In this document: piece by piece, positions 16,196 through 41,913 of the stretch
How the letters are laid out: each line of letters opens with the position of its first letter
How positions within the stretch are numbered: position 1 is the stretch's first letter
From: a virus
Taxonomy: Duplodnaviria > Caudoviricetes
Direction: 5' to 3' (one strand)
IMG/VR virus record: IMGVR_UViG_3300037249_000571
Location: 3,527 to 67,526 of that record
DNA length: 64,000 bases
Translations under genes and position numbers: made by a program
Notes under the pieces: generated by a model
Told to the model about the DNA's origin: nothing
Database searches by the model: none
Seen by the model: only the letters and a program-made list of their open reading frames with translations

Positions 16196-16224
16196 TCATA
16201 AAAGGGCATGTTTTTTTCGCGGAA
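16196..16224 (-). promoter_or_regulatory. phage-specific promoter-like motif upstream of VRR-NUC/nuclease/RNAP operon
   Basis: TTCCGC-G-16nt-TTATGA, same geometry as nine other copies. Confidence 0.7.
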
Positions 16225-16271
16225 ATATAAAAAGCCCGTGTTTATATTTTCACGGACTTTCGTTTGTTATG

Positions 16272-16586
16272 TCAAAGCATGGGGTCGTCAGACTTGATAG
16301 GGTATAGGGCGCAGTGCTTCTTGCAGAACGGATAGTTTTCATGGCAGCTTGCAACGCAGGCGCTTCCGGGCGGATCGGCACCGATATAATTCATATACTC
16401 GGCGCGGCTCTCTATTTCCTGCCCGCAGTCGGCGCAGTACCAAATATGCTTTTTCGGTTCCCACTTCATGCTCCCGCCGCATTGATCGCAGGAGACAGCG
16501 TCGCCGTTCTCGTCATAAGCTCCGCATTCCCATTCCTTGTTCATGTCCAGTCGATATATTTCCTCATAGTCGTCAAATGAATTCAT
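16272..16586 (-). CDS. moron: Cys-rich zinc-finger protein
   Basis: CDQC, CADC, C..SC, CKKHC; own promoter and terminator (about 16229-16260). Confidence 0.65.
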   Translation of the reverse strand: MNSFDDYEEIYRLDMNKEWECGAYDENGDAVSCDQCGGSMKWEPKKHIWYCADCGQEIESRAEYMNYIGADPPGSACVASCHENYPFCKKHCALYPIKSDDPML

Positions 16587-16610
16587 GTAAGCACCTCCTG
16601 GCTCTCCGTC

Positions 16611-16640
16611 ATTGTACCAAAGTTCAATGCAGATTGCAAG
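16611..16640 (-). promoter_or_regulatory. sigmaA-type promoter TTGCAA-18-TGgTACAAT
   Basis: near-consensus -35 and extended -10 upstream of GGAGGT RBS of 16272..16586. Confidence 0.65.
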
Positions 16641-16711
16641 GAGTGTCTCTGGGTCTTGGGAACCTTGTGTCGGTCTTATAGCATCCCTCCAATTTTTGTG
16701 AAAAACAAGGC

Positions 16712-16955
16712 TCTGCCCATTTGCCCACTTTTTATCCCTATTATATATAAAATATAATTTTTTCTTTTCGCGTTTAATAAGGAATAAAAGTGGGAAAGTG
16801 GGCAGAAAGTCCGCAAAGCCTTATATTTCCTCACTTTTTCGTGCCCACTTTTGTTTTCAAAACCGGGCATTTGCCCACTTTTTTTGGCCATTTTTCAATT
16901 TTGTTCGCGCTGTTTTTCTCCGTTGCCCAAACAAAACCGGGCAGAGCCCACTTTT
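16712..16955. repeat. iteron-like repeat cluster, candidate replication origin
   Basis: GCCCACTTT at 16723, 16843, 16873, 16946; inverted copies at 16787 (1 mismatch) and 16795; AT-rich core about 16731-16790. Confidence 0.55.
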
Positions 16956-16979
16956 TTCGGACAAAGTTGGCCACGAAAA

Positions 16980-17330
16980 TCACTCGTCTCCGGCCGCTCT
17001 GTTCAGCGATTTTTCCGCTTCAAAACGCTCGGGATACCTGGCCCGCAGCTTCTGGACGTTCATCTGAAAGATCTCTTCCAGCGAATATCCCAGGGCGTCC
17101 GCGCTCACCGCCAGATACCAGGCCACATCCCCAAGCTCCTTCGCCAGGTGCTCCCGATGCATGTCATGCCCCTGAAACAGATGCTTCTTCAGAATGTCCA
17201 TGGCCTCGCCCGCTTCGCCGTTTAGGCCCATCAGACCCTGGATCAATCTGAAATTCGTTAGAAGCCGGGAACTCGTCCCCATATGACTCTCCGTCCGCAG
17301 CGCTTCCTTCTGGTACTCGTTCGGGCTCAT
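16980..17330 (-). CDS. MazG-like nucleotide pyrophosphohydrolase
   Basis: GLNGEAGEAMDILKK...ELGDVAWY. Confidence 0.85.
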   Translation of the reverse strand: MSPNEYQKEALRTESHMGTSSRLLTNFRLIQGLMGLNGEAGEAMDILKKHLFQGHDMHREHLAKELGDVAWYLAVSADALGYSLEEIFQMNVQKLRARYPERFEAEKSLNRAAGDE

Positions 17331-17446
17331 CGCCGCATTTCTCCTCGAATTCTTTTATGGCTTGTTCCATTCTTTCAAATGTCATTGCCGTTTTACTCGT
17401 TCCTCGGCCAACAATTAACAGCCCTTTCGCCACGCCCTCCAGTTTT

Positions 17447-17650
17447 TCAGCGGCCTTCCGGAACTTTTCGTTTGTGATTTCGATTCGTGCCATTTTCTTG
17501 CTCCTCATACTTGATCGGCTTGTCCGTCCCGTCGTTGTGGAATTGCTCAATACACGAATCACAAGGTTCGTCGGTATCTTTCAAGGATGAATACTTGCAG
17601 GTCGGACAGTATTTGTCATAACGAACTTCTTTGGCCTTGAGTTCCACCAT
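17447..17650 (-). CDS. small Cys-rich hypothetical protein
   Basis: CPTCKY...EPCDSC. Confidence 0.55.
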   Translation of the reverse strand: MVELKAKEVRYDKYCPTCKYSSLKDTDEPCDSCIEQFHNDGTDKPIKYEEQENGTNRNHKRKVPEGR

Positions 17651-17810
17651 AAATAATGACCTCGCTTTCCGGATGTTCTTTCAATACGCGCTTTACAAAC
17701 TCGCGCTGCATTTCAGTCTTTCCGTTTCCTCTGCCGACCATCATAAAAAGCTTTTGGAGCTTCTTTGAAGGCTTCGGAAGTGTCTGCTCTTCGTTCCTAT
17801 GCGGGCTCAT
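17616..17810 (-). CDS. small protein with Walker-A-like VGRGNGKT
   Basis: 64 aa, start overlaps the nrdG stop region. Confidence 0.45.
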   Translation of the reverse strand: MSPHRNEEQTLPKPSKKLQKLFMMVGRGNGKTEMQREFVKRVLKEHPESEVIIYGGTQGQRSSL

Positions 17811-18294
17811 ACAGAACTACCTCGCCTTTCTTGAGGCTTTCCTTCACGTCGATCAGCCGCTGGTTCGTACTGCCGCGCCATGGAATATCAAGACTCTTTT
17901 TGTCTTCCTCGAAAGGACCGTCCACCAGCACGTCGATCTCCCGCAGCAGGTCTTTCCGGGCGTCCTCCCATTCAAGGATCTGTTCGTATGTGTAGCCGGT
18001 GTAGCACCACACGGAAAGATTCCTTTTATGCGCCGCCCGCGCCAGATCCAAAGCCGCCAGAGGCTGTAAGAAAGGTTCCCCACCTGTTAGGGTAATGCCC
18101 GTCAGCAGCGGGTCCTTAGCCATTTCTGTTTTGAACTCCTCGGTATCCATGCGAACCCCGCCATAGATGGGCCAGGAAGTGGGGTTCTGGCAGCCCTTGC
18201 ACTTGTGCAGGCAGCCCTGCATGAAGATCGCCATGCGGATGCCAGGCCCGTCTACGATAGAATTTTGTTGAGAACCGAATACGCGAAATATCAT
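17797..18294 (-). CDS. nrdG: anaerobic RNR activating enzyme (radical SAM)
   Basis: VDGPGIR, GCLHKCKGCQNP (CxxxCxxC), GGEPF, VLVDGPF, GSTNQR. Confidence 0.95.
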   Translation of the reverse strand: MIFRVFGSQQNSIVDGPGIRMAIFMQGCLHKCKGCQNPTSWPIYGGVRMDTEEFKTEMAKDPLLTGITLTGGEPFLQPLAALDLARAAHKRNLSVWCYTGYTYEQILEWEDARKDLLREIDVLVDGPFEEDKKSLDIPWRGSTNQRLIDVKESLKKGEVVLYEPA

Positions 18295-18330
18295 GATTTA
18301 TCGTTCCTCCTTTTCGTTAGTCGCCGCGGC

Positions 18331-18597
18331 TTAACTGATCATAACATCTGGCGGGAGTTCCGTAATGATGCCATGAGGACTGCCCGACAATGCTCGCCGG
18401 ACTTCATTCATTGTCATAATTCCTTGGCGCAGGAACGTCTCCACACGGCGATCGTCGGCATATAGGGTGATTTCTTCAATATCCTCAAAGTTTGGATAAG
18501 TTCTGCCGCAGTAGGAACAAGTGCGCCTGCCCGGTTCGTAAGGCGCTCCGCATCCTTCACAGTTTATCGAGGCGCTTCGATTTTCTGTCTTCCGCAT
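18331..18597 (-). CDS. zinc-ribbon protein
   Basis: CEGCGA...CSYCG. Confidence 0.55.
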   Translation of the reverse strand: MRKTENRSASINCEGCGAPYEPGRRTCSYCGRTYPNFEDIEEITLYADDRRVETFLRQGIMTMNEVRRALSGSPHGIITELPPDVMIS

Positions 18598-18824
18598 CTT
18601 TGTTCGACCTCCTGTACATGATCGATCGCGTCTATAACGGCTATCGTGCATCCTGGGCATGTTATCCAGCTCTTATCCTGAATATAGAAGCTTACGTATT
18701 CGCTCTTTTCAAAGTTATTGATTGTTGTATATCCGCCGTCAAATGCTTCGGTTCCGATGTATGGTTTATATTCAACGGCGCCGCAGATACTGCACACTCG
18801 TTTTCGGAAAATATCAGTAGCCAT
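18564..18824 (-). CDS. Cys-rich hypothetical protein
   Basis: CSIC...CPGC; RBS. Confidence 0.55.
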   Translation of the reverse strand: MATDIFRKRVCSICGAVEYKPYIGTEAFDGGYTTINNFEKSEYVSFYIQDKSWITCPGCTIAVIDAIDHVQEVEQRCGRQKIEAPR

Positions 18825-18886
18825 TTCGTCTCTCCTTTCGCACGAAAAAGAAGAGAGCCTGCGGATAGTGCAAGCCCTCTTCGTTT

Positions 18887-19054
18887 TTACATGCCCATCG
18901 CGTCAAAGAAATTCTTCAAAGTCAGAACCACCCAATACAGCACAATGAACGCCCAGGCGGATACGTTGTTCAGCAATATGAGTGTCACCACGATGAAGGA
19001 TATAATGATCAATGCGAACACGCAAAGCTGTGATAGCCGTTTCCATTCGTTCAT
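18887..19054 (-). CDS. small two-TM membrane protein
   Basis: two hydrophobic segments; GGAGG RBS. Confidence 0.55.
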   Translation of the reverse strand: MNEWKRLSQLCVFALIIISFIVVTLILLNNVSAWAFIVLYWVVLTLKNFFDAMGM

Positions 19055-19212
19055 ATAGCCTCCATCATGCCGTTCTTTTCCCAAAGGATCTGCTCTGCTT
19101 CTTTTGACGCTTCGACGATAGTATCAAAGTTCCCGCAGAAACGCCCATCGATTTTCAGAGTGTAATATCCCTTGGGGTTTCGGACGATATCAATGTGCTC
19201 GTTATCCGGCAT
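19051..19212 (-). CDS. hypothetical 53-aa protein (not in ORF track)
   Basis: MPDNEHIDIV...; ATGA overlap with next gene. Confidence 0.5.
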   Translation of the reverse strand: MPDNEHIDIVRNPKGYYTLKIDGRFCGNFDTIVEASKEAEQILWEKNGMMEAI

Positions 19213-19468
19213 CGTGCTTCACCCGATCCCTTTCTTCCGCCTGCTTGGCGTTGTTCCACCGGTCCAGAGTGCCTACCAGATAGCCCGTGATACGCCGCAC
19301 CCGTTCAAAGGGCGGATTGTCCAGATGGTAAGTGATTTCCACGTCTTCCTCGTTCAGAACGTTGACGTCCATTTCTTTCAGCATGTCTCCGAACTTCTCG
19401 ATGGCACGCTGTTTGTAGTGCGCCAGCTCTTCTTCGCTGACAGGACCGTTGATAACGTTGATAATCAT
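19202..19468 (-). CDS. stand-alone glycyl-radical domain (NrdD C-terminus-like)
   Basis: 88 aa ending PFERVRRITGYLVGTLDRWNNAKQAEERDRVKH. Confidence 0.85.
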   Translation of the reverse strand: MIINVINGPVSEEELAHYKQRAIEKFGDMLKEMDVNVLNEEDVEITYHLDNPPFERVRRITGYLVGTLDRWNNAKQAEERDRVKHDAG

Positions 19469-19692
19469 ATCTGTGCTTCTCCTCTCTTTGAAAACAGCTC
19501 GTCCAAGCTTAATCCGCAGTTCAGCGCTTTCTGGATCTTTTTGGCTTCATCCAAATGCAGGGGGGACACGCCTCTCAGCTTTCGCAGCAGCGACGTATAG
19601 GATATCTGCGATTCTTCCGCCAGCTTCCGTTTATCCCAACCGAGCAGATAGCATTGGATCATTACCTGCATGTAAATGATATCCCCGCGCAT
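19465..19692 (-). CDS. Cro/CI-type HTH protein
   Basis: 75 aa from MRGDII (AAGGAGG RBS); KRKLAEESQISYTSLLRKLRG...LDELF. Confidence 0.75.
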   Translation of the reverse strand: MRGDIIYMQVMIQCYLLGWDKRKLAEESQISYTSLLRKLRGVSPLHLDEAKKIQKALNCGLSLDELFSKRGEAQI

Positions 19693-19693
19693 G

Positions 19694-21535
19694 TTACGTT
19701 CCGGCCTCCTTATCAGCTTTTGCTTCGGGTTTCCACCGTTTGAACTGTTCTTTTTCCGTATCGTGCTCCCGCCGTCCGCAACAGGGGCATACGTCGCCGA
19801 TAATGCCATTGAAGCCGCACACCGGGTCCCGGTCCACGGGATGGTTGATGCTGCCGTAGCCGATACCGCTTTCCTTCATGTGGCGGATGATTGCCTCAAA
19901 CGCCTCCAGGTTCTTCGTGGGGTCGCCGTCCATTTCCACATAAGAAATATGCCCCGCGTTGGTCAGGGCATGGTAGGGGGCTTCCAATTCTATTTTTTTC
20001 GCTGCGGTGATGGGGAAATATACGGGGATGTGGAAGCTGTTGGTGTAGTAATCCCGGTCTGTCACGCCGGGAATGACGCCGTAGAAGTCCCTGTCCATCT
20101 TCACGAACCGTCCGGACAGGCTTTCAGCGGGCGTCGCCAGGCAAGTCACGTTCATATCCAGCTGTTCGCTCATTTCGTCGCAGAAGTTGCGAATATAATG
20201 AACGATATTGATGCCCAGCTTCTGCGCCTCGGTGCTTTCCCCGTGGTGTTCCCCGATCAGGGCTTTCAGCGTTTCTGCCAGGCCGATGAAGCCGATGGAC
20301 AGGGTTCCGTGTTTCAGCACCTCGCCGACTGGATCGTCCGGACCCAGCTTTTCCGAATCCATCCATACGCCCTCGCCCATCAGAAAGGGGAAGTTTCGCA
20401 CTTTCCGCTCTGCCTGCACCATGAATCTCGCCAGCAGCTGCCGCATCACGGCGGTCAGCATCCAGTTCAGATGAATATAGAACACCTTCACGTCATGGTT
20501 CGATTCCAGGGCCAACCGCGGAAGATTGATAGAAGTGAAGCTCAGGTTCCCCCGTCCGGGAGCGATCTCCGGTCCGCACATGTTGCCCATTACGCGGGTA
20601 CGGCAGCCCATATAGCCCACTTCCGTTTCCGGATGGCCCGGCTCGTAGAATTGCAGGTTAAAGGGAGCGTCCAGGAAACTGAAATTGGGGAACAGCCGCT
20701 TGGCGCTCACTCGCATCGCCAGCCGGAACAGATCGTAATTCGGGTCGCCGGGATTGTAGTTTACGCCTTCCTTGACGCGGAAGATCTGAATGGGGAAGAT
20801 CGGTGTTTCACCGTTGCCCAGGCCCGCCTCCGTCGCAAGCAGCAGTTGTTCCATAGCCAGCCTTCCTTCCCAGGAGGTGTCCATGCCATAGTTGATGCTG
20901 CTGAACGGTACTTGGGCGCCCGCGCGGGAATGCATGGTGTTCAGGTTGTGCACCAAGCCCTCCATGGCCTGGTAGGTGTCGCGGGTGGTCTTCCTCATTG
21001 CGTAATCCTGCCGCCAGGATATGTCCCCGCCGCTTCCAAGCTCCGCCTGAATATCAAAGGCTTCCCGCAGATATTTCTGATACGTCAGCCGAACCCCATC
21101 GGCCATGGCGTAATCAAAATCCACAATGGATTGCCCTCCGTGCTGGTCGTTCTGGTTGCTTTGAATGGCAATGGCAGCCAATGCTGCATAGCTGCCGATG
21201 GACTTCGGCTCTCGTAAGTGCCCGTGACCGGTGTTGAACCCACCCTTGAACAGCTTCTTGAGCTCGATTTGGGTACAGGTGGTAGTCCAGCCGTAGAAGT
21301 CCAGGTCATGAATGTGAATCCAACCTTTCCTATGAAGATTGGCGGTTTCCGGGTCGATCATGGTTTCCAGATAGTATTCTTTGGCGGTATTGCCGCCTTG
21401 CTGAAGCATAGCTCCCATAGGCGTATCGCCGTTGATATTGCCGTTCTCTCGCTTCAGATTGCTGTCCTTGGCGGGAGAGCCGGTAATGTCGTCATAGATT
21501 TTTTTGACCGTTTGGCCAAAGAGGGTTTCGTTCAT
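19694..21535 (-). CDS. nrdD: class III ribonucleotide reductase, lacking ATP cone and C-terminal glycyl-radical loop
   Basis: IHIHDLDF, SNQNDQHGGQ, MGCRT finger loop, NLSFTSINLPR, ATPAESL, DPVC..CPCC Zn site; ends without RITGY. Confidence 0.9.
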   Translation of the reverse strand: MNETLFGQTVKKIYDDITGSPAKDSNLKRENGNINGDTPMGAMLQQGGNTAKEYYLETMIDPETANLHRKGWIHIHDLDFYGWTTTCTQIELKKLFKGGFNTGHGHLREPKSIGSYAALAAIAIQSNQNDQHGGQSIVDFDYAMADGVRLTYQKYLREAFDIQAELGSGGDISWRQDYAMRKTTRDTYQAMEGLVHNLNTMHSRAGAQVPFSSINYGMDTSWEGRLAMEQLLLATEAGLGNGETPIFPIQIFRVKEGVNYNPGDPNYDLFRLAMRVSAKRLFPNFSFLDAPFNLQFYEPGHPETEVGYMGCRTRVMGNMCGPEIAPGRGNLSFTSINLPRLALESNHDVKVFYIHLNWMLTAVMRQLLARFMVQAERKVRNFPFLMGEGVWMDSEKLGPDDPVGEVLKHGTLSIGFIGLAETLKALIGEHHGESTEAQKLGINIVHYIRNFCDEMSEQLDMNVTCLATPAESLSGRFVKMDRDFYGVIPGVTDRDYYTNSFHIPVYFPITAAKKIELEAPYHALTNAGHISYVEMDGDPTKNLEAFEAIIRHMKESGIGYGSINHPVDRDPVCGFNGIIGDVCPCCGRREHDTEKEQFKRWKPEAKADKEAGT

Positions 21536-21771
21536 TGTTGGTTGTTCCTTTCCATAAGGATCATACATTCTTCTAACAGTCTGTAGGCTGTCTTTCCGAT
21601 CGAGGCATAGGCGTCTTCCGTTTCGTCGCTTATCAGCGGACACCAGCGAGGACGGCGTTTGTTGTACGTTTCTGAATTGAGAGGTTTATTTTTGGCTTGA
21701 CAGTAGGTTTCCTCATTCATGCATGGACAGTCTTGGCAATTATCAGGCATCCGGATATTGATTTTTACCAT
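21532..21771 (-). CDS. Cys-rich hypothetical protein
   Basis: MPDNCQDCPC...RPRWCPL. Confidence 0.55.
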   Translation of the reverse strand: MVKINIRMPDNCQDCPCMNEETYCQAKNKPLNSETYNKRRPRWCPLISDETEDAYASIGKTAYRLLEECMILMERNNQQ

Positions 21772-21796
21772 TCATGACCTCCTTGCTCGATTCAAC

Positions 21797-22231
21797 TTAA
21801 TAATGCCGGTTCCGCTCGTTTTCCAACTGGACGTGGACTTGACCCAAAACCTCTTGCAAAATATTCTCGTTACGACCATAAACGGAAAGCGTACTGTCAA
21901 CCATATGGCGTGCAAGGTCTTTGATAATCGCTTCTTCTCCGGCCTTCCTCGCCATTTCGACCATTTCACGAGCCTTTTTCTCAAGAAGTTCATCCGATAT
22001 GGGCTCATTGAGAATCGCTTCGATTTTCTCGTAAAGCCTTTTCAGAATTTGTTCTTTAATCAAACGCTCGATTTCGGGCGCTTTCCGTGTTCCATAGTCG
22101 TATTTAACAAGATTGAGTTCACCCCAAACTTGTTCGGCCCTATGTTTAAGTTCTTCTTCTGATATTGTGGCAGCGAATAATTTAGCCATCTCGGTGCCAA
22201 ATACCTTATTCATTTCCGTATTGATCTCCAT
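21797..22231 (-). CDS. hypothetical coiled-coil protein
   Basis: ORF with RBS in co-oriented operon. Confidence 0.55.
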   Translation of the reverse strand: MEINTEMNKVFGTEMAKLFAATISEEELKHRAEQVWGELNLVKYDYGTRKAPEIERLIKEQILKRLYEKIEAILNEPISDELLEKKAREMVEMARKAGEEAIIKDLARHMVDSTLSVYGRNENILQEVLGQVHVQLENERNRHY

Positions 22232-22646
22232 CGCTTTCGTCCTCCAAGCATTCTGGCGCTTCCAACTCAATGTCTGTAGGTTTGGCCATAACAATTGCTT
22301 TTTCGCCGTGGCAGAGAAGGATAAGGCCGTTTTCCTTTTCTTTCAAAAGCTGATCATATATCTTTTTTCTCGCATCTTTGTTGAGGATATACGGATGTTG
22401 TACGACCAATAGGTCATCCGCCGGAACGACCTTGATTGCCGGTTCTTCCAGGCGGCACAGTTCTACGAAATCAGGCTTGGATGCCTCCTCGATAGCGTGC
22501 TGCATTTCCTTGGATCGAAGCTCGTGAGAATATACAGGACGCCCCATTTTTTCAGCGATGTACTGGTAGTAGATATACAGTTTATCACCTTTCAGCATAA
22601 CGGTGCCCGTGTAAGCCATAACGATTGCTTTTTCACGATCTGTCAT
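22206..22646 (-). CDS. hypothetical protein
   Basis: 146-aa ORF with RBS. Confidence 0.55.
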   Translation of the reverse strand: MTDREKAIVMAYTGTVMLKGDKLYIYYQYIAEKMGRPVYSHELRSKEMQHAIEEASKPDFVELCRLEEPAIKVVPADDLLVVQHPYILNKDARKKIYDQLLKEKENGLILLCHGEKAIVMAKPTDIELEAPECLEDESDGDQYGNE

Positions 22647-22662
22647 TTCGTCTTTCGTCCTT

Positions 22663-22956
22663 TCAGTATTCGTTCGGAAACAGGATCGTCGTCGCGCTCC
22701 TGTCCCATTCGGTAATGATCCAGATACGCCAGCCTTCGCGGTCCGGATGCTGATATGCTGCCAGAATCCTATCGCCGCATCTCACCGCTTCGTCGTTCTG
22801 CTCCCAGTCCTCTTTGCAGATGTCGCCCCAGTCGCAGCGGATATAGCGGTTGAAACACTGATTCACAAAGCTGGCAAAGTTTTCGTTTTCTTCCTGTAAT
22901 TCGGCTATGGCGCGGGTCGCAACCAATTGTCCGATTTGAAATCTAAGTTCGTCCTT
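22663..22956 (-). CDS. conserved small protein (GDW...WIITEWDRSATTILFPNEY), start codon appears damaged
   Basis: frame open upstream to AT/AAG after GGAGG+7 nt. Confidence 0.5.
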   Translation of the reverse strand, partial: KDELRFQIGQLVATRAIAELQEENENFASFVNQCFNRYIRCDWGDICKEDWEQNDEAVRCGDRILAAYQHPDREGWRIWIITEWDRSATTILFPNEY

Positions 22957-22969
22957 ATTTTTGTACCTC

Positions 22970-23203: not shown

Positions 23204-23211
23204 TGCTTCGT

Positions 23212-32493: not shown

Positions 32494-33411
32494 TTATTCC
32501 GTGATAAGCCCCATATGGTAAGCGTGTTCTTCGATCACGCCGTCCACATTGGGGTCGATCATCAGCACATGTTCATAGTCTCCGGGCGCGTCGCTGCGTT
32601 TCCGATATACGTCCTGAATGCGAAGATCAATATAATTGTCCCCGCTCCCTTCATTGTGCTTATCGTAGACCCAGCCAACGCGCTGGCCGGCGATGGAACG
32701 CTTGATGCCCAGCATGTCGTAAATATCATTCAGGGTGAGCATTCCCTTGGCTTGAAGCATCTGATTCGCTACCCGTTCCTGCGCCTGGAGAAAGAACAGA
32801 TTGTAGTCGTCGTTCTGTTCGGCGCCCTGGGCTTCTCCGTAACAGAAATATCTGGCGTAATCGCTGGGAACGGCCTTATCCGTTATATGCACCGTCTTTT
32901 CGACAGTTTGCTCCTTGCCGTCCTCGTCCCGAACCGTTTCCTGAATGGTTTCTTCGTGGGTACCGTTGCGAAGATCTCGATCCGCCTCCTCTCTGTAACG
33001 ATCGACCACCCGGCCGCGGTATTCCTTAAAGCCCGCGTCAAGCACGGTATAGGCGGCTGCCAGCGCCATATTCCGCTTGTGCAGAATATGATGGCCCGCC
33101 AGAATGCTGGTGATGGACGCCGCTTCCACGGCGACGGAAGGCCCGTAAAGCGCAGCGATGCGGATTCCGGTCTTCAAGCGTGCTTTCCGTACTTCTTTTT
33201 TCGTATCCTCTGCTTGTTCGCTGAAGTTTTGGATGTTATTCACTTGCTCGCGATGGGCGTTCAGAATATCGCTCAGCTTCATTGTTGCGAAGCAGGCCAT
33301 GACGCCGCCGGCAACCGCGCCGATGCATCCGCCTGCCACCATGATCTGCGGGCTGTGCTGTTTCAGACAAATCGCGGTCTGATTCCAAATCGAAAGAATC
33401 TTGTTATTCAT
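32494..33411 (-). CDS. DUF6353-like protein, paralog 1
   Basis: KRNMALAAAY..FKEYR and LTLNDIYDMLG shared with 35553 and 37224 ORFs. Confidence 0.7.
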   Translation of the reverse strand: MNNKILSIWNQTAICLKQHSPQIMVAGGCIGAVAGGVMACFATMKLSDILNAHREQVNNIQNFSEQAEDTKKEVRKARLKTGIRIAALYGPSVAVEAASITSILAGHHILHKRNMALAAAYTVLDAGFKEYRGRVVDRYREEADRDLRNGTHEETIQETVRDEDGKEQTVEKTVHITDKAVPSDYARYFCYGEAQGAEQNDDYNLFFLQAQERVANQMLQAKGMLTLNDIYDMLGIKRSIAGQRVGWVYDKHNEGSGDNYIDLRIQDVYRKRSDAPGDYEHVLMIDPNVDGVIEEHAYHMGLITE

Positions 33412-34811: not shown

Positions 34812-34829
34812 AATATCCGCTCCTTATTC

Positions 34830-35105: not shown

Positions 35106-35175
35106 AATTCTCCTCCTCATTTTTGTAAGAAAATCCAAAAAGAAAGGCGCCTTGTTATCAGCGCCTTTGCCTTCG

Positions 35176-35484
35176 TCAGGATTCTTCTTCCTCGTCATCG
35201 ATCTTGAGATCTTCTTCCAGGTTCACTTCCACGACCTGGGGCTCTGCCGGTTTGCCGGTTTTCGTTTTCTTGGCGGCCTTCCTGTCAGCGGCATGGGTTT
35301 TCATCTTGAGGATCAGCGGATCAATCGCATATTTGCAGAGTGCCATTCCGGTGTAGTACGCTCCGATAGCGATCAAACCACCGATCCCCATGGACTTAAG
35401 ATCCAATTTCCACTCAGGCAGGTTGTCCTTGATTGTGTCAACCGTCTCCTGCGCAACAGCCTCGTTCATTTCGATGCTTTCCAT
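35176..35484 (-). CDS. TM-containing hypothetical protein
   Basis: from MESIEM; own promoter motif (35522-35550) and terminator (about 35136-35170). Confidence 0.65.
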   Translation of the reverse strand: MESIEMNEAVAQETVDTIKDNLPEWKLDLKSMGIGGLIAIGAYYTGMALCKYAIDPLILKMKTHAADRKAAKKTKTGKPAEPQVVEVNLEEDLKIDDEEEES

Positions 35485-35521
35485 TGTCTTTCTCTCCTTT
35501 CGTTTTCGAGGGTGTGTCCCT

Positions 35522-35550
35522 TCATAAAAACCTTTGTTTTTTTCGCGGAA
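35522..35550 (-). promoter_or_regulatory. phage promoter-like motif
   Basis: TTCCGC-17-TTATGA. Confidence 0.7.
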
Positions 35551-35552
35551 TA

Positions 35553-36341
35553 TCACTTGTCGAAATCGTAGATCGGCGGAATCAAATGCGTTATTACCAG
35601 ACAGGGTTCTTTCTCGTTGACCAGTTGGCTTGAATAACGCAGTTCGATCATGCCTTTGTCCACGTTCCAGCCAAGTTCGCTGCCAACATCCACCGGCGGC
35701 AATCCGATTTCCATATAGAATTCATTCAAGGAAATATACGGTTCCGTCATGGTTGTCATTTGACGGTTCAGTTTGTTCACAGCGCGTTTGATCGTGTCGA
35801 TGTCCGAATAGAAATATCTTCCAAACAGACTGTCGTAACACAGCGTCCGTTTGGTGTCACCTTCCACGATCGGCGCCTCGGTTTCATTCGGCCTTGGCGG
35901 GTTTTGGGCCACTCGATCCCGGTCGATAGCGTCCCTGATCGCCGATTCTTTTTTTTCGCCGACGGTTTCAACCACCTTGTTCCTGTATTCCCGCAGGCTC
36001 GTTTCCGCCAGGCTATAGGCCGTCGCCAAAGCCGCGTTTCTGCGGTCTTTCATCGTGCTTGCTCCGATCAGGCAGGCCGTCGATACCAGGCCGGTAGCCG
36101 TAGCCGGAATATAACATTTCCAGGCGGCTTCCACCGTTTGCTTCGCGGTCAGCTTTTTGTGGTGTTCATCCTGTTTCTTTTTTTCGATGCGCCGAAGCGC
36201 TTCCGGCGTCGCTTTCACTGCCAGAATGGTTGTCAGGATCATTCCGCTGATGCCGAGGCCCATCAGAATATCGGGGCTGTTCTGCCTCAGCACTCTTCCG
36301 CCATTTTCAATCATTTGTCTAAAGTTAAATTTCTTCATCAT
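35553..36341 (-). CDS. DUF6353-like protein, paralog 2
   Basis: LAVKATPEAL, RRNAALATAY, ISLNEFYMEIGL, LGWN. Confidence 0.75.
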   Translation of the reverse strand: MMKKFNFRQMIENGGRVLRQNSPDILMGLGISGMILTTILAVKATPEALRRIEKKKQDEHHKKLTAKQTVEAAWKCYIPATATGLVSTACLIGASTMKDRRNAALATAYSLAETSLREYRNKVVETVGEKKESAIRDAIDRDRVAQNPPRPNETEAPIVEGDTKRTLCYDSLFGRYFYSDIDTIKRAVNKLNRQMTTMTEPYISLNEFYMEIGLPPVDVGSELGWNVDKGMIELRYSSQLVNEKEPCLVITHLIPPIYDFDK

Positions 36342-36729
36342 CGTATTCTCCTTTGCCTCCGATCCCGAGATATCTTGCCACCAAATTTTCTCCTAAGAAG
36401 CAGTGTTTTTGCTTCTCGTCCTCGTATCGCAGATCAACCAGGATATCGCCAAGGCATTCCGTAACGATTTTCAGGAATTTATGCGTATAAACGTTATCGC
36501 TTTCCATCATGAACATGTCCGAATTCCAATACGCTTTGTGGACGACGGCGATTGGATTCTCGTTGGAATTTCGGATTTTTTCGATCAGCAAGCCGATCAC
36601 ATATTGCATATACGTATACTTCTGAATCACGTAGTCGTTTTTTCGCCAAGGAATATAGAACGGACTGATCCGCACGTCTCTCCGATACCGTCTCAGAAAC
36701 GATACCGCTTCAGACTTCGTCACCCCCAA
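36325..36729 (-). CDS. hypothetical protein
   Basis: 134-aa ORF with GGAGG RBS. Confidence 0.55.
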   Translation of the reverse strand: MGVTKSEAVSFLRRYRRDVRISPFYIPWRKNDYVIQKYTYMQYVIGLLIEKIRNSNENPIAVVHKAYWNSDMFMMESDNVYTHKFLKIVTECLGDILVDLRYEDEKQKHCFLGENLVARYLGIGGKGEYDDEEI

Positions 36730-36774
36730 TCCACCTCCAAAAAGAAAAGAGCCCTTGTGATTGGGCTCTCGTCT

Positions 36775-36927
36775 TTATTCGTCCTTGTTCATGTTGGTCA
36801 AAGCTTCCTGAACTTTTTCTTCGATTTTCTGGTTCAGCTTGACTTCACTGACAATACTGCTCAATGCGCTTACAATAATGCCGGTGACACCAAGAATCTT
36901 CCCCAAAACGTTAATCCATTTATTCAT
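36775..36927 (-). CDS. 50-aa amphipathic/TM protein (not in ORF track) in its own promoter-terminator cassette
   Basis: AAGGAGG RBS; motif 36944-36972 upstream; terminator about 36739-36770. Confidence 0.65.
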   Translation of the reverse strand: MNKWINVLGKILGVTGIIVSALSSIVSEVKLNQKIEEKVQEALTNMNKDE

Positions 36928-37220
36928 GCTTTCACCTCCTTTTCCGTAACAGGCTTTGTTTTTTTCGCGGAATCTGAGATTGTCCCGGCAAAGATATATT
37001 CCGCTATAGAGCCATCGTCAAATGCGATCCGGCATGCTCTCGGATAGCCTCCCAGAATATGTGATCTAAGCTCAACGCCGGGATAATCAACATCAATGAG
37101 ACTTATTGCTCTTTTGTGCTGATCGAAGCATTCTTCTGCTTCCTGTGCCGTATTGAATACCATGCCGCATCCCGCGCACTTGTAACGAGTAACGATCTCT
37201 ACTTTCGGCATCATTTCCAT
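36924..37220 (-). CDS. zinc-finger-like hypothetical protein
   Basis: YKCAGCG...AEECFDQH. Confidence 0.55.
   Translation of the reverse strand: MEMMPKVEIVTRYKCAGCGMVFNTAQEAEECFDQHKRAISLIDVDYPGVELRSHILGGYPRACRIAFDDGSIAEYIFAGTISDSAKKTKPVTEKEVKA
36944..36972 (-). promoter_or_regulatory. phage promoter-like motif
   Basis: TTCCGC-17-TTACGG. Confidence 0.65.
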
Positions 37221-37223
37221 TGC

Positions 37224-38012
37224 TCATTCCTCCGCGTTCTCATCCAGCGAATGAGGGCCGAAAGGCATGTCGATTGAGCATACGATCAGCCCATCATCCG
37301 TTGCGTAATGCCTGTGGTCAAAGTCGATCCATCGATAACCATAGTCCGTTTCCCCGATGTACTCGTCCCAACCTACAAGATCGCCCTCCGGGACGTGCTC
37401 CAGGCCGAATATATCCAAGACTTCGTTCAGCGTGATGTCGCCGTTCAGCTTGAAATATCGGTTGATTTCGTATTCAGCCCGAAGCACTTCTTCCATGGTG
37501 CGTTCAAAGAATTTCGGTGTTCCGCAGTATTCAAAGTAAAAGGTCTGCTTTTCGTTCCAGGGTGGATCATCCCGCTTCTGTTCTTCTTCCTCTTGAAGAA
37601 TCGCGCGGCTGATCGTTCTATTCGTGCCCTCTCCGCAGATCGTGTCCGTCTTTTTCCGATAGTTTTGGAATAGCTGTTCCAAGGCGGCGTAGGCTCCGGC
37701 AAGCTCGGCCTGTTTCCGTTTGTTCAGCACATTCGCGCCAAATATACAGGACAGCGAGGCAGCCCCCATCATAACAGTCGGAATATAATCGACCCAGCAG
37801 GCTTTGACGGTTTCCAGCATGGTCAGCTTTGGTAAACCGATTTCTTTTGGATTACCTGCTTTATTGACTCGCGCTTTGTCGATCTTGACAAGCGCCTTGG
37901 GCGTCGCTTTCACTGCCAGCGCCACCGTTGTGACCATACTGCCAGCGCCTAAGAAGGTCAAGGCAGTCGCTCCGTTTTCTTTCATCCATTTTTGAATATC
38001 AAAGTTCGTCAT
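37224..38012 (-). CDS. DUF6353-like protein, paralog 3
   Basis: LAVKATPKAL, KRKQAELAGAY, ITLNEVLDIFGL, VGWD. Confidence 0.75.
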   Translation of the reverse strand: MTNFDIQKWMKENGATALTFLGAGSMVTTVALAVKATPKALVKIDKARVNKAGNPKEIGLPKLTMLETVKACWVDYIPTVMMGAASLSCIFGANVLNKRKQAELAGAYAALEQLFQNYRKKTDTICGEGTNRTISRAILQEEEEQKRDDPPWNEKQTFYFEYCGTPKFFERTMEEVLRAEYEINRYFKLNGDITLNEVLDIFGLEHVPEGDLVGWDEYIGETDYGYRWIDFDHRHYATDDGLIVCSIDMPFGPHSLDENAEE

Positions 38013-38047
38013 TTTCTCCCATCCTTTCCAAAGAAGAAGAGCCCTTG

Positions 38048-38266
38048 CTAAAGCTCTTCCACTTTCTGGTCGATCAGCCGCATCAGTTCTTTTTCAGTCA
38101 TTGTCACAGTCACATTAAGTTGTAAAGTCACATTTCCGTTGTTCAGTGCCGTATCTATTTCGTTAAAACGGATTGCTGCACTATCGCAGTCTAACCGTTT
38201 CCGAATCAGCCCGGTCACAATCTTAGAAACCATTTTCTTTACGAATCCCGTATTGATAATTGACAT
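38048..38266 (-). CDS. hypothetical early protein
   Basis: AAGGAGG RBS; motif at 38295-38323. Confidence 0.65.
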   Translation of the reverse strand: MSIINTGFVKKMVSKIVTGLIRKRLDCDSAAIRFNEIDTALNNGNVTLQLNVTVTMTEKELMRLIDQKVEEL

Positions 38267-38294
38267 AAATCATTCCTCCTTTTTCGGCTGTCTT

Positions 38295-38323
38295 CCATAA
38301 TATGGAATGCAGTTTTCGCGGAA
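38295..38323 (-). promoter_or_regulatory. phage promoter-like motif
   Basis: TTCCGC-17-TTATGG, fused to upstream terminator T-tract. Confidence 0.7.
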
Positions 38324-38364
38324 AGAAAAAGAAGACGGCTTGCTGTTGCCGTCCCCTTCGTTCG

Positions 38365-38589
38365 TTACCGATATTCCACCACGGTTGCCTGTCCGCTCAT
38401 GATCGTTTTCGTCCGCATGAAGGATAGGAAAGAGCCTTCCAGCATATAAACATACAATGGTTCTCCCTCGTCGCCGTAGCCCTGATCCAACCCGACCAGT
38501 GTGCCGCCGCCCTCAAAGGGTTCTCCCTTGTGCTGTTCATAGTAGTCCCGCATTTCCTTCGTTCCTTCCACACATACTCCAAATACCAT
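38365..38589 (-). CDS. hypothetical early protein (paralog of 39425..39673)
   Basis: from MVFGVC with GGAGG RBS. Confidence 0.6.
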   Translation of the reverse strand: MVFGVCVEGTKEMRDYYEQHKGEPFEGGGTLVGLDQGYGDEGEPLYVYMLEGSFLSFMRTKTIMSGQATVVEYR

Positions 38590-38619
38590 TTGTCTCGCCT
38601 CCATTTCAAATTCGGTTTT

Positions 38620-38648
38620 CCATAACAGAATCTGAAAATTTCGCGCTA
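38620..38648 (-). promoter_or_regulatory. phage promoter-like motif (variant)
   Basis: TAGCGC-17-TTATGG. Confidence 0.55.
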
Positions 38649-39005
38649 AATATCTCTCCGGTCGAACACGGTCTCCCAGCGTTCCTTGGGAAGCGGTTTC
38701 ATTTTCAGCGCCCACATGATCTGCCTTACCGTTACCGTAGGATATAATCCATCCTTACCCGGCCCGGCCCGCTCCTCGAAGAATGCCCGAAAGCCTGCGT
38801 TCAGATAAACGGCGTCCGTCACCCATGGATCGATCTCGCTCCACCACGTCTTTTTCGTCTCCGGATCGAATCGCTGTTGGATCACAGCAAGTCCTTTTCC
38901 CCCGATTTCGTACAGTGTGCAGCGTGTATAAACGGGATGCTCGCAAATGTAAATCCGGCCGTACATACTCGTATGAAAAGCCGGCTTCTCGAAATGGTAC
39001 CGCAT
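38646..39005 (-). CDS. conserved hypothetical early protein
   Basis: from MRYHFEKP; GLAVIQQRFD..K.TWW..IDPW. Confidence 0.65.
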   Translation of the reverse strand: MRYHFEKPAFHTSMYGRIYICEHPVYTRCTLYEIGGKGLAVIQQRFDPETKKTWWSEIDPWVTDAVYLNAGFRAFFEERAGPGKDGLYPTVTVRQIMWALKMKPLPKERWETVFDRRDI

Positions 39006-39058
39006 ATCGCCTCCGAGCAAAAAGAAGAGCCCTTGTAAGGCCCTCCTTTTGTGAAACG

Positions 39059-39331
39059 TCATACTTTGATCAGAATCCCTTCCCGTGCCACCATATCCGC
39101 GAACGCAACATGCTTGGTGAAGTCAGCGGTTTTCACAGCTTCCTTGTAGTCCTTGTACAGTCCCGGCCGGTCGTCTACGGCATAAATAACGACGGATTCA
39201 GGATTTGTGTTTATCATCCATCGCGCTAACCGCAGCATATTCCGAATCGAGATTTCTTCCCCTGTCAGAAACTTGTAGTCCACCACTTTCAGCACCTTGT
39301 TGAATGCGTACAAATATACCTTCCTGTCCAT
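39059..39331 (-). CDS. hypothetical early protein
   Basis: AAAGGAG RBS; motif 39359-39387. Confidence 0.65.
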   Translation of the reverse strand: MDRKVYLYAFNKVLKVVDYKFLTGEEISIRNMLRLARWMINTNPESVVIYAVDDRPGLYKDYKEAVKTADFTKHVAFADMVAREGILIKV

Positions 39332-39358
39332 GTTCTTTCTCCTTTCATTTGTGAGTTT

Positions 39359-39387
39359 CCATAACAGCGTTCGTAAATATCGCGGAC
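39359..39387 (-). promoter_or_regulatory. phage promoter-like motif
   Basis: GTCCGC-17-TTATGG; nearly identical to 39706-39734. Confidence 0.7.
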
Positions 39388-39424
39388 AAAAAGAGAAAGC
39401 GCCTTGTAATCGGCGCTTCCGTCT

Positions 39425-39673
39425 TTACCAACCTTTCAAAACCGAGCAAGCATGATGAATGCATTCAAGATGAATTTTGTGCCAGAGATACGACCAAAGC
39501 GGTCCAGTACACAGAAAAGCAATTCCGGCATTCTTTTTTTCTTCAAACGGTGTTATAAGATCGACTATCGAATAGCCTCTCAAATTCGCACCGTTGCCAT
39601 AGCGTTTTCCAGAATGTTCTTCCGCGTAACGGATCACCTCAGGAGTATTTTTCATCATCACCACGAATTTCAT
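39425..39673 (-). CDS. hypothetical early protein (paralog of 38365..38589)
   Basis: AAGGAGG RBS; own promoter motif and terminator. Confidence 0.65.
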   Translation of the reverse strand: MKFVVMMKNTPEVIRYAEEHSGKRYGNGANLRGYSIVDLITPFEEKKNAGIAFLCTGPLWSYLWHKIHLECIHHACSVLKGW

Positions 39674-39705
39674 GCATCTTTCCTCCTTCGTTTTTGTTTA
39701 TGTTT

Positions 39706-39734
39706 CCATAACAGCATTCGTAAATATCGCGGAC
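39706..39734 (-). promoter_or_regulatory. phage promoter-like motif
   Basis: GTCCGC-17-TTATGG. Confidence 0.7.
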
Positions 39735-39788
39735 AAAAAGAAAGAGGCCGTGAATTTCTCACGACCCCGTTCTTTGAGTCATCCGTCA

Positions 39789-40184
39789 TCACTTCTTGAA
39801 TTGGAACAGTCGCAGATGGCTCGACACCCATTGTTCTGTTTTCTTGGTAAACGAACCGGTCTTCTCAAACTGTATTCCTTCCATCATCCAGAAACAGGAA
39901 ACCACCGTAGGGATCAGCAGTGAAGCCCCGTCCAATACGCATTTGACGATCCTGTCCTTCTTGCCCTGCTCCTCCTTTTGCTTCAGTTCTTTCGACTTCC
40001 AAGTCATGTCGTCGAACCTCGCGCCGGATTCGTTGTCAGCATGCTTCCGATCCATCAGCTGCTTATGTAAAGCCGTCAACTTCTGCAATTCCCATGATGC
40101 CTCTTCTGAATCTTTTTTGGCGTCGGATACCGCTTGGAGTGAAATCCGGTACGCTTCCTCCAGCATCACTTCAATGTCGTCCAT
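39789..40184 (-). CDS. coiled-coil protein with C-terminal hydrophobic segment
   Basis: 131 aa; RBS; motif 40218-40246. Confidence 0.65.
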   Translation of the reverse strand: MDDIEVMLEEAYRISLQAVSDAKKDSEEASWELQKLTALHKQLMDRKHADNESGARFDDMTWKSKELKQKEEQGKKDRIVKCVLDGASLLIPTVVSCFWMMEGIQFEKTGSFTKKTEQWVSSHLRLFQFKK

Positions 40185-40217
40185 AGTCTTTCCTCCTTAT
40201 TTGTAATCAGGATTTCT

Positions 40218-40246
40218 CCATCAAAGCGGGTGTTATTCTCGCGGAA
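40218..40246 (-). promoter_or_regulatory. phage promoter-like motif
   Basis: TTCCGC-17-TGATGG. Confidence 0.65.
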
Positions 40247-40478
40247 TATAATTTTCCCGAAGCACTTGGAACGTGACGTATTCCTGCGTCTGAAGTTTGG
40301 CATACCCTTCGTTCATCAGTTCCAGAAATAAATAAGGCGGCTCGTCCGGATCGGACCGATCAACTCGGAGCGTCCCGATAACACGTCCTTTATGATCTCG
40401 AACGATAATGCACGCCCCAGTAATAATGCCAAATATAAAGCACCCAACCAAAGCGATAATGATAATCACCGTATTCAT
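40233..40478 (-). CDS. N-terminal TM protein
   Basis: IGTLRVDRSDPDEPPYLFLEL; preceded by TGaTACAAT extended -10 (40494-40502). Confidence 0.65.
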   Translation of the reverse strand: MNTVIIIIALVGCFIFGIITGACIIVRDHKGRVIGTLRVDRSDPDEPPYLFLELMNEGYAKLQTQEYVTFQVLRENYIPRE

Positions 40479-40575
40479 TTTGCACCTCCATAGATTGTAT
40501 CACACAGATTCGTCACCTGCGTACTGTTTTTGAGAAAAGAAAGAGGCCATGCGTGTTTGCATGACCCCTGTTCCG

Positions 40576-40956
40576 TCAACCTTGCGTACCAGCGTCAAAG
40601 ATGTCCAGAACCACAGCGATCGGTGTTTCCATGGTGATGGTTTCCACGCCGCAGTCTTTCACGATCGATTCGCCCAGTTTTCCGATGTCCGCCATGGTCA
40701 GCTTGTTTACGATCATGTTCTTGAAGTTGGGGCACTCCTGCCAGAAATCCAGCATTTCTCCCACAGCCAGCTTGTTCGCCGGTGTAATATCATTCACCTT
40801 GAAATTACTGCCGGGAGGAACGTCGCATCCAACAGCCTTTGTCATTCCCCGCGTCATGAGCATGAGCCCGGCAATGCCGGCCACCGCGCTTCCGATACCT
40901 GCGATAGCGTCCTTGTGCTGCCCGATGAATTCCTTCACCTTTTCACCTTTAGTCAT
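40576..40956 (-). CDS. membrane-anchored hypothetical protein
   Basis: from MTKGEK with AGGAGG RBS; motif 40991-41019. Confidence 0.65.
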   Translation of the reverse strand: MTKGEKVKEFIGQHKDAIAGIGSAVAGIAGLMLMTRGMTKAVGCDVPPGSNFKVNDITPANKLAVGEMLDFWQECPNFKNMIVNKLTMADIGKLGESIVKDCGVETITMETPIAVVLDIFDAGTQG

Positions 40957-40990
40957 TGTTCTTTCCTCCTTAAATATGATACCTTTCGGT

Positions 40991-41019
40991 TCATAAAACG
41001 CCATGTATTTTTCGCGGAA
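40991..41019 (-). promoter_or_regulatory. phage promoter-like motif
   Basis: TTCCGC-17-TTATGA. Confidence 0.7.
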
Positions 41020-41021
41020 TG

Positions 41022-41429
41022 CTATTTTCGCGCTTTGTCCAGCAGCCAGAAAAACCGCCTATACATGGTATACCAGACTTCTTTGCAGCATGGCGGCATC
41101 AGTTTGCTGTAGGAATATCCCTGTGTTACCGCTAAAATCATGTAATTGCTTAAATCGCCGGCAGCCTCCTCCGCAGTATGAGTCACCATGTCAAGCCTTT
41201 CGCGAAAATATAGCTTTGCTTCCGCATATTTTGCGGTAGGATCTGCCATATCGCTATCCTTGCGCTTCTCAACGATGCTTCTTGACACAATGGACGCCCC
41301 GTCAAGCGAAGCATAACATCTGATCCACTCGTTATACTGCATACAGAAGTGGCTCAATTCGTAATACCGATGCTTTGAAATCCAATACGTATTCTTTTCC
41401 GACAGTTCCGGACGAATATCCGTACTCAT
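41022..41429 (-). CDS. putative ArpU/RinA-like transcriptional regulator
   Basis: SDMADPTAKYA, AVTQGYSY, YRRFFWLL pattern resembling phage activators (inference). Confidence 0.45.
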   Translation of the reverse strand: MSTDIRPELSEKNTYWISKHRYYELSHFCMQYNEWIRCYASLDGASIVSRSIVEKRKDSDMADPTAKYAEAKLYFRERLDMVTHTAEEAAGDLSNYMILAVTQGYSYSKLMPPCCKEVWYTMYRRFFWLLDKARK

Positions 41430-41585
41430 ATCAAACCCTCCATTTTCAATTTAGAATAGATATAGCTTGCTAATCTTTCGGCGGTCCTCGCGGCCAAAAA
41501 ACACAAAAATCCATCTCATTTCTAATCTAAGTTAAAAATTCTATCTTAGAATAGAATATCAGATGGCAAAAAGAAAGAGCCCTTG

Positions 41586-41870
41586 TTATTGGGCTCTGTC
41601 CTCACAGCAGTGATTCCTAATATAATTGTTCATTTTAGTACAATGGCTTTTCGCCCAGCGTGGGAGCACATAGGGCCACATCAGCGCCATCCTGCCTATC
41701 TGCTTGAGCGTAACTTCCTCTTCGGTTCCGTAAAGTTCGTCCAACGCGTTTTTCGTTACCACGATTCCGTATTTCACGCAGAAGTACAGGTCTAAAGCCA
41801 GCAATGTTCCCGTAGTAGCTAACAAGCCGATTCCTTCGTACCACCATACCAACAGTATCAGATTCGTCAT
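41586..41870 (-). CDS. membrane protein, first gene after attP
   Basis: TM segments; AGGAGG RBS; motif 41885-41913. Confidence 0.65.
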   Translation of the reverse strand: MTNLILLVWWYEGIGLLATTGTLLALDLYFCVKYGIVVTKNALDELYGTEEEVTLKQIGRMALMWPYVLPRWAKSHCTKMNNYIRNHCCEDRAQ

Positions 41871-41884
41871 AGCGAATCACCTCC

Positions 41885-41913
41885 TCATAGGAGGCTGTGT
41901 ATATATCGCGGAA
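41885..41913 (-). promoter_or_regulatory. phage promoter-like motif
   Basis: TTCCGC-17-CTATGA. Confidence 0.65.

Follow-up and report, generated by a model that had tools for sequence, protein, structure and literature searches.

Promoter recognition by single-chain two-barrel RNA polymerases (RNAPs) is largely unknown, and mapped motifs exist only for the enzymes of Thermus phages. Here, a repeated intergenic motif and its relation to a predicted two-barrel RNAP are described for a gut phage from the IMG/VR virus record IMGVR_UViG_3300037249_000571 (67,526 bp, classified as complete by CheckV). The analyzed stretch of 64 kb of this record is called the window, and coordinates refer to it unless stated otherwise. 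In the Thermus phage P23-45, the virion enzyme gp96 and the non-virion enzyme gp64 are single-chain two-barrel polymerases as well, each with its own motif upstream of early transcription starts (bioRxiv 10.1101/2022.12.01.518664). The likeness extends to the occurrence of the motif only in relatives with the polymerase, and the structure model of the polymerase described here matches gp62, gp64 and gp96. The Thermus enzymes differ in that they belong to another polymerase family, lack fused helix-turn-helix (HTH) modules and use other motifs. Their link to the motifs was established by ChIP-seq, mapping of transcription start sites and rifampicin resistance, whereas the link presented here is purely comparative.

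YonO, encoded by the Bacillus prophage SPbeta, is likewise a DNA-dependent RNAP with two barrels in a single chain (Forrest et al., 2017; PMC5467207). It comes from a temperate Firmicute phage and uses one start to transcribe a long late operon. Its promoter is undefined, it has no HTH flanks and its similarity is limited to the catalytic motifs, whereas the motif described here is also found before early cassettes. A "1706 family" of YonO-like proteins has already been published (PMC2919709), and the HTH-RdRP-HTH signature protein of a phage group of Actinobacteria and Firmicutes belongs to the polymerase family studied here (Koert et al., bioRxiv 10.1101/842583). It is the sole HTH or DNA-binding protein among the orthologues listed as conserved across that group (bioRxiv 10.1101/842583). 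In the literature, no experimental test of a PHROG 4291 or 1706-family polymerase and nothing useful on the promoters of phage 1706 was found.

A motif of the same family was described as a 50-bp intergenic sequence in the Gordonia phage Vardy of cluster DJ, which carries the same polymerase (Henson et al., 2022; PMC9671010). In both phages several same-strand intergenic copies lie in a small-gene region located downstream of the tail genes; those of Vardy contain TATAATGA. Where the Vardy motif has TATAAT and CGCAGAAAT, the phage described here has TnTTAT and CGCGAAAAA, respectively. For Vardy the motif was read as a sigma-70 −10 box, without a link to the polymerase, and a copy before the polymerase operon is unreported. 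Promoters of the T7/SP6 type are also comparable, with continuous conservation over about 20-26 bp, many same-strand copies and a phage-encoded polymerase. In T7, the AT-rich stretch directly abuts the purine start (TATA, then GGGAGA), which resembles TTAT followed by GAAGAGAG at the putative start of the motif described here. The T7/SP6 RNAP has a right-hand fold and not two double-psi barrels, and the resemblance is an analogy only.

The repeated motif and its ten copies

An earlier note on the window had listed ten copies of a bipartite motif, TCCGCG-N16-TTATGR, as likely promoters of the phage RNAP. The exact pattern matched six sites, all on the minus strand, compared to 0.03 expected from shuffled sequences. 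The ten listed sites served to build a weight matrix, and a scan of the whole genome with this matrix recovered the same ten sites only, with scores of 37-49 and a clean gap to all remaining positions (12 or less), which confirmed the ten copies. No match was found on the plus strand. Since the ten sites align without gaps, the spacing is fixed, in agreement with the constant distance between the two elements reported in the earlier note. The variants named there, TAGCGC at 38620 and GTCCGC at 39359 and 39706, are present.

The conserved core was determined to be CGCGAaAwwwACA-N5-TnTTATGR, a nearly continuous stretch of 26 nt. The information content peaks at CGCGA, the next A, a C-A 11-12 bases on and, past five free bases, T.TTATGR. 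The leading T or TC of the first hexamer is variable among the relatives, which keep CGCGA...ACA instead, and the description of the upstream element as a TCCGC-type hexamer was thus mistaken.

All ten copies precede genes (nine were said earlier to lie near a ribosome binding site), with a distance of 15-63 nt from the motif to the Shine-Dalgarno sequence (SD) and the start codon. In the direction of transcription, the first copy after attP (41885..41912, minus, as are all others) is followed by the SD GGAGG 2 nt past the motif and a gene of 94 aa (41870..41586). The second copy (40991..41018) precedes a gene of 126 aa (40956..40576), and the third (40218..40245), a TTTGAT variant, precedes the gene 40184..39789. 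The twin copies four (39706..39733) and five (39359..39386) are preceded by terminators at 39768..39744 and 39420..39395, respectively. Copy six (38620..38647), the TAGCGCG variant, lies before the gene 38589..38365, and copy seven (38295..38322) follows a terminator at 38359..38328. Copy eight (36944..36971), a TGTTAC variant, has the SD AAGGAGG 3 nt past the motif. Copy nine (35522..35549) heads a short unit (35484..35176) with a terminator at its end (35168..35143). The tenth copy (16196..16223) has the best matrix score, its position is kept in nearly all relatives and it heads the endonuclease-exonuclease-RNAP operon, as had been stated before. Probably, the late genes are also driven by this copy.

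RNA data were available as contigs from two bovine-gut metatranscriptome runs of one study, which give no exact 5′ ends, strands or levels. The contigs lie only at 35175-35514, 39965-40142, 40581-40949 and 41644-41768, the second and third of these downstream of copies three and two, respectively. All RNA-covered stretches lie downstream of motif copies, at distances of at most 410 nt. At copy nine both runs end at 35514, which is 8 nt past the motif, with contig starts at 35175 in one run, just before the terminator 35168-35143, and at 35294. The RNA contigs are consistent with promoter-to-terminator units.

The motif keeps strictly to one strand and lies at the stated distance from SD and start codon, terminator hairpins with T-run are located directly 5′ of several copies, purines follow its AT-rich part and RNA contigs are seen just downstream. 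It is therefore very probably a promoter of a phage-specific type.

In a DNA run from a related strain, deletions or replacements end at motif edges (39354/39702, 36972/37216, 40529/41019 and 38628/38638). One contig joins 39354 to 39702, which corresponds to a loss of 347 nt exactly between the twin copies 39359 and 39706. The position of these joints at motif edges indicates that the promoters flank exchangeable gene cassettes. Such joints would also be seen if the motif were not a promoter but an intergenic site of another kind, namely an operator present in repeats, a boundary for recombination or of cassettes, or a site related to packaging. This is highly improbable, as all the features that mark the motif as a promoter argue against it and recombination between repeated promoters accounts for the joints without any further role.

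The two-barrel polymerase and its co-occurrence with the motif

The tenth motif copy is followed on the minus strand by a phrog_93-like endonuclease gene (15801..16133), a Cas4/RecB-type exonuclease gene (phrog_3953; 15302..15859) and the gene of a 969-aa two-barrel RNAP (12390..15299). A small conserved protein (phrog_4303; 12121..12375, minus) is always encoded directly after the polymerase and could be an accessory factor of it. The 969-aa protein matched PHROG 4291, the phage-1706 family of YonO-like polymerases, over its full length (E=0), and its GADFDGD sequence at residues 559-565 is the catalytic loop (DxDGD) of two-barrel RNAPs. Using Pfam, HTH modules were identified at about residues 66-216 and a sigma-70 region-4-like HTH at about residues 930-969. 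The identity to the actinophage members is 43-47%. An AlphaFold2 model based on 21 relatives (pLDDT 74.5) matched QDE-1 (E 2e-7) and also RDR2 and the phage two-barrel RNAPs P74 gp62, P32 gp64 and P23-45 gp96. Judged by the family match and this predicted model, the protein is a two-barrel polymerase of the PHROG 4291 or phage-1706 family with a QDE-1-like fold.

Co-occurrence of motif and polymerase across relatives, which the earlier note had suggested as a check, was found in both directions. Starting from the polymerase, a motif copy was identified by the matrix scan in 45 of 51 IMG/VR relatives; it lies about 950 nt upstream of the gene and in all cases on the strand of the polymerase. 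Starting from the motif, IMG/VR was scanned with the exact 26-nt pattern and only records of at least 50 kb were considered; the polymerase is encoded by 29 of these 31 motif-selected records. One of the two exceptions, G010, was rejected as a polymerase-less relative, since its contig begins at the gene after the polymerase and ends before the right end, which indicates truncation.

Among described phages, a motif site precedes the endonuclease gene in Arthrobacter phage Circum, Gordonia phage Tanis, Streptomyces phage Rima and Faecalibacterium phage FP_oengus. The whole-genome counts on the forward and reverse strand were 8/0 for Circum, 11/0 for Tanis and 5/0 for Rima, compared to 0-1 for reversed-pattern controls. 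FP_oengus has 13 copies and Lactococcus phage P162 has 11, with none on the reverse strand in both. The layout is constant among the phages, with clustered copies among the small genes that follow the tail genes and one copy before endonuclease, exonuclease and polymerase. In addition, the motif was found in all 10 analyzed prophages of Clostridia genomes. The pairing of motif and polymerase spans phages of Arthrobacter, Gordonia, Streptomyces, Lactococcus and Faecalibacterium together with Clostridia prophages. It is found in phages of three bacterial groups and across phyla.

The genome of Blautia faecis DFI.3.66 (4.1 Mb) has five pattern matches, every one of them located within 27 kb around the polymerase of the prophage. 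The matches in four other host genomes are likewise clustered on few contigs (more thinly in G033), apart from three single strays. Because the motif is confined to prophage regions in host genomes, it is not a host regulon signal.

The N-terminus of the polymerase contains an invariant HYG..SGRYPWGSG, also read as HYG..SGRYPLGSG (residues 32-56). Two small proteins encoded beside terminase and portal (6289-6774 and 8600-9004, minus) open with HYGVKGMKWGVRR, a HYGVKGMKWG-type start akin to the polymerase N-terminus. The same pairing of the polymerase with a small head-module protein recurs in Circum, Rima, Tanis and P162. In the literature, nothing useful was found on the HYGVKGMKWG motif. As a lead only, the HYG-type N-terminus may mark proteins that are packed into the head and thus may be a head-targeting signal.

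Leader hairpin, start site and candidate readers

A terminator hairpin with T-run lies directly upstream of copy ten (16227..16256, minus) and is present in many relatives too. It is predicted to insulate the RNAP operon from transcription of the replication module. A second hairpin with T-run follows in the leader (16156..16197, minus), with arms at about 16196-16187 and 16175-16166, and starts at the G of TTATGA. In a per-sequence hairpin search, such a leader was found in 27 of 36 distinct relatives, in none of 52 early copies and in 5% of shuffled leaders; in this phage, it occurs only at the RNAP-operon copy. The arms covary in distant members (GGGGGGAATAG/CTATTCC in FP_oengus and AGGGCAACCA/TTGGTGCC in Tanis). 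RNAalifold predicted no pairs on a MAFFT alignment of the late leaders, whose loop lengths are too different. Judging from its sequence, this leader element is probably an attenuator.

The loops of the terminators between 35143 and 41597 (minus) are alike (AATAACAA, GATTACAA, AATCACAA, GATAACAA and GATTACA). Similar loops occur in Circum (CTAACAC, three times), in Tanis (CTAACCC) and in FP_oengus (CTAACAA, just before the late promoter). A conserved loop of the TAACA type is unusual for plain intrinsic terminators; it may act as a stop specific to the polymerase or bind a protein.

The transcription start had been expected 5-8 nt downstream of the motif in the earlier note, whereas the boundaries of SD, a tRNA-like gene and the leader hairpin make the G inside TTATGR more likely. 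At the copies 41885 and 36944, the first base of the SD is located 2-3 nt past the motif, and in one copy of FP_oengus it is the G itself. The SD would be truncated by a start 6-7 nt further on. In FP_oengus (L060, 2935-3006), the last base of a motif copy is also the first of a tRNA-like gene with an irregular anticodon loop, and the transcript of this gene would hence be nearly leaderless. Furthermore, the leader hairpin of the polymerase operon begins at the G of TTATG or at the next base in many relatives. These three independent, indirect hints suggest the G that directly follows T.T.AT as the probable transcription start. The end of the RNA contigs at 35514 is compatible with a start 1-2 nt or 6-8 nt past the hexamer. 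With a start at this G, positions −12 to −7 would be occupied by the five free, GC-rich bases and the A of ACA, therefore no −10 element of the sigma-70 family fits.

In comparison to a sigmaA promoter, no TTGACA-like hexamer was found 16-18 bp upstream of the −10-like hexamer. At this distance, the copies have ATTTCC, TATTCC and the like, with TTGTCC only in the twin copies; the position is not conserved in the relatives, and conservation continues through the would-be spacer. The hexamers in the TATAAT register are TTTTAT, TGTTAT, TATTAT, TTTGAT, TCCTAT and TGTTAC. The T at position −7 is present, and the A at position −11 occurs in one of ten copies; in FP_oengus (CTTTAT), it is found in none of 13. 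For this phage, the earlier view of a motif unlike a sigmaA promoter was therefore borne out. The bipartite look, the fixed spacing and, in some lineages, TATAAT are shared with sigma-70 promoters. The differences are the missing −35 consensus, the dispensable A(−11), the conserved "spacer" and a putative start too near to the hexamer. The same phage has a textbook sigmaA promoter, TTGACA-18-TATACT (43406..43435, minus), before the integrase gene (43429..42260) and just past a strong terminator with an 18-bp stem (43506..43466). A sigmaA-like site upstream of copy ten, TTGACA-18-GAAAAT, was rejected as a chance match, since the relatives lack it and its position is within the terminator upstream, in the loop and the stem.

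Concerning the reader of the motif, we lean, by a modest degree of confidence, towards the two-barrel polymerase recognizing it directly. The ten sites would then be promoters of a phage-specific type of about 26 bp, made up of CGCGAaAwwwACA, five free bases, TnTTAT and G-R. The fused HTH modules of the polymerase would bind the upstream element CGCGAaAwwwACA, the AT-rich TnTTAT would melt and the RNA would begin at the next G. Nine copies would be the promoters of the small genes behind attP, which form short cassettes bounded by terminators, and further on of the replication genes. The tenth would drive endonuclease, exonuclease and polymerase, with the packaging and structural genes reached by read-through, and would be gated by the promoter-proximal hairpin and T-run. 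The first polymerase molecules would arrive in the virion or through leaky host transcription.

A number of points weigh against recognition by the polymerase. Binding and transcription by the enzyme are what we infer from comparative evidence, and the RNA contigs, as noted, define neither ends nor strands. The co-occurrence is in part common descent of one phage group and does not single out the polymerase among the conserved phage proteins. The second exception among the 31 motif-selected records, the provirus G016, has five motif copies, no polymerase and no recognizable sigma factor; its DNA polymerase gene is fragmentary, and as a possibly decayed provirus it was counted neither for nor against the link. 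Moreover, the polymerase gene lies behind its own motif and a terminator, and a promoter used by the polymerase only needs a source of the first enzyme. The insulating terminator and the leader hairpin sharpen this bootstrapping question, since the first molecules would have to come from elsewhere if the polymerase were the sole reader. Delivery in the virion is a lead drawn from the HYG likeness of the N-terminus only.

The sequences of some relatives add to these points. Circum, Tanis, Rima and P162 have TATAAT, and the Blautia prophage has TATTAT; both hexamers provide A(−11) and T(−7) and could be used by host sigmaA. The Vardy motif was indeed read by Henson et al. as the −10 box of host sigma-70 (PMC9671010). 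Accordingly, host RNAP with its housekeeping sigma factor could read the motif, with TnTTAT/TATAAT as the −10 element and the upstream part as the site of a phage regulator or an UP-like element. The two-barrel polymerase would then do other work, e.g., late transcription from another signal or priming, and the bootstrapping problem of its operon would vanish. The early genes of most phages are transcribed by host RNAP, which also speaks for this explanation. It is difficult to reconcile with the rare A(−11) in this phage and FP_oengus and with the lack of a −35 element at 16-18 bp. In Tanis and Rima, even with a perfect TATAAT, CCCC is found at the expected sigma-directed start and purines (GAGA) lie directly past the hexamer, and in several cases an SD or the tRNA-like gene begins 0-3 nt past the motif. 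Neither a second repeated motif for the polymerase to read nor, among the 30 open reading frames (ORFs) of the early and middle regions searched with Pfam, a regulator gene was found. Altogether, reading by the host holoenzyme is considered unlikely.

Alternatively, host core RNAP might be redirected by a phage specificity factor, such as a sigma-like or adaptor protein, an ORFan early protein or the phrog_4303 protein, which always adjoins the polymerase. The bipartite layout with fixed spacing is sigma-like. With the sigma-70-family protein of G010 as query, sigma-like genes were found in four polymerase-bearing relatives (G028, G001, G026 and G004), which is a further point against the polymerase as the reader. 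With the same query no such gene was found in this genome, and the Pfam search of the 30 early and middle ORFs detected neither a sigma factor nor an HTH regulator. The sigma genes are sporadic, whereas the motif is universal in the group. In addition, the putative start at the G after TTAT misfits the geometry of the sigma-70 family, and the same bootstrapping problem arises unless the factor is injected. A phage-encoded factor as the reader is hence regarded as quite improbable. A small remainder of probability was assigned to none of the explanations given here. The sigma-70-family gene of G010 (Sigma70_r2) is located at 366-1109 (minus) of contig L191, and the sigma genes of all five relatives lie in the replication module. 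A comparison of the G010 sigma factor with the HTH regions of the polymerase gave no significant similarity (best E 0.47).

Of the earlier proposal of a cognate promoter of the phage RNAP, the promoter-like and non-sigmaA character, the co-occurrence with the polymerase and the position before its operon were retained, with the polymerase as a candidate reader beside a phage factor and the host enzyme. The suggested positive feedback agrees with the copy at the head of the RNAP operon and is complicated by the terminator and the promoter-proximal hairpin and T-run there. The complete scheme, in which a sigma-free single two-barrel polypeptide would read a 26-bp promoter, start at the G, run the whole programme, be carried in the virion and be gated by an attenuator at its own operon, is tentative and would rather not be expected to hold in all its parts.

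Gene order and implications for the phage group

Every gene of the window is encoded on the minus strand, and no plus-strand gene was seen. In the order of transcription, the tail genes, lysin and holins are followed by the strong terminator, the canonical sigmaA-like promoter with the tyrosine integrase and attP. After attP, about 6.5 kb of small ORFan genes precede the replication module, which comprises a 1398-aa primase-polymerase, a helicase, an SSB-like protein, NrdD with its activase and MazG. The order ends with endonuclease, Cas4-type exonuclease, the 969-aa polymerase and the small conserved protein, followed by HNH, terminase, portal and a protease-capsid fusion.

The attP core is the 3′ part of a tRNA gene (about 42040..42090, plus) and adjoins the integrase gene on its downstream side, and the reported position of nine motif copies after attP holds. 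The tRNA scan found no full tRNA gene in the window. In one DNA run, the depth at the attP region was 121 compared to about 5 elsewhere, and loose ends are present there. No repressor-like gene was found in the phage. Related prophages were identified in genomes of Oscillospiraceae, Ruminococcus, Blautia faecis and Lachnospiraceae, which places the host of the phage within the Clostridia.

Three paralogues of DUF6353/phrog_2152 (262, 262 and 305 aa) are encoded in the early and early-middle region (35553-36341, 37224-38012 and 32494-33411, respectively; minus). The giant tail gene (2058 aa) and the lysin gene are separated by an ORF of 614 aa with a reverse-transcriptase domain (46977-48821, minus), which may be part of a diversity-generating retroelement. 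NrdD is apparently split (19202-21535, minus) into an ORF of 613-649 aa with most of the domain and a separate ORF of 88 aa with the C-terminal glycyl-radical end; an ORF of 75 aa is located between both pieces.

New in this analysis are the lineage-specific analysis of position −11, the motif-first co-occurrence, the confinement to prophages, the start-site inference, the candidate attenuator at the late copy and the metatranscriptome hint of transcription units. A defined candidate promoter is available in a phage group that is large and cultivable (phages of Arthrobacter, Gordonia, Streptomyces and Lactococcus, FP_oengus and Blautia/Lachnospiraceae prophages). The group also provides a base that may be the start, a putative attenuator and a polymerase whose DNA-binding modules are built in. 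This raises the question of whether a minimal relative of cellular RNAP can find promoters without a sigma factor. If recognition by the polymerase is true, the annotation of TATAAT-containing repeats in many SEA-PHAGES genomes would change. The transcription system of the group would then be compact, portable and complete in itself, with hosts that range from Actinobacteria to Clostridia, and could possibly provide a new orthogonal expression system for Gram-positive bacteria.

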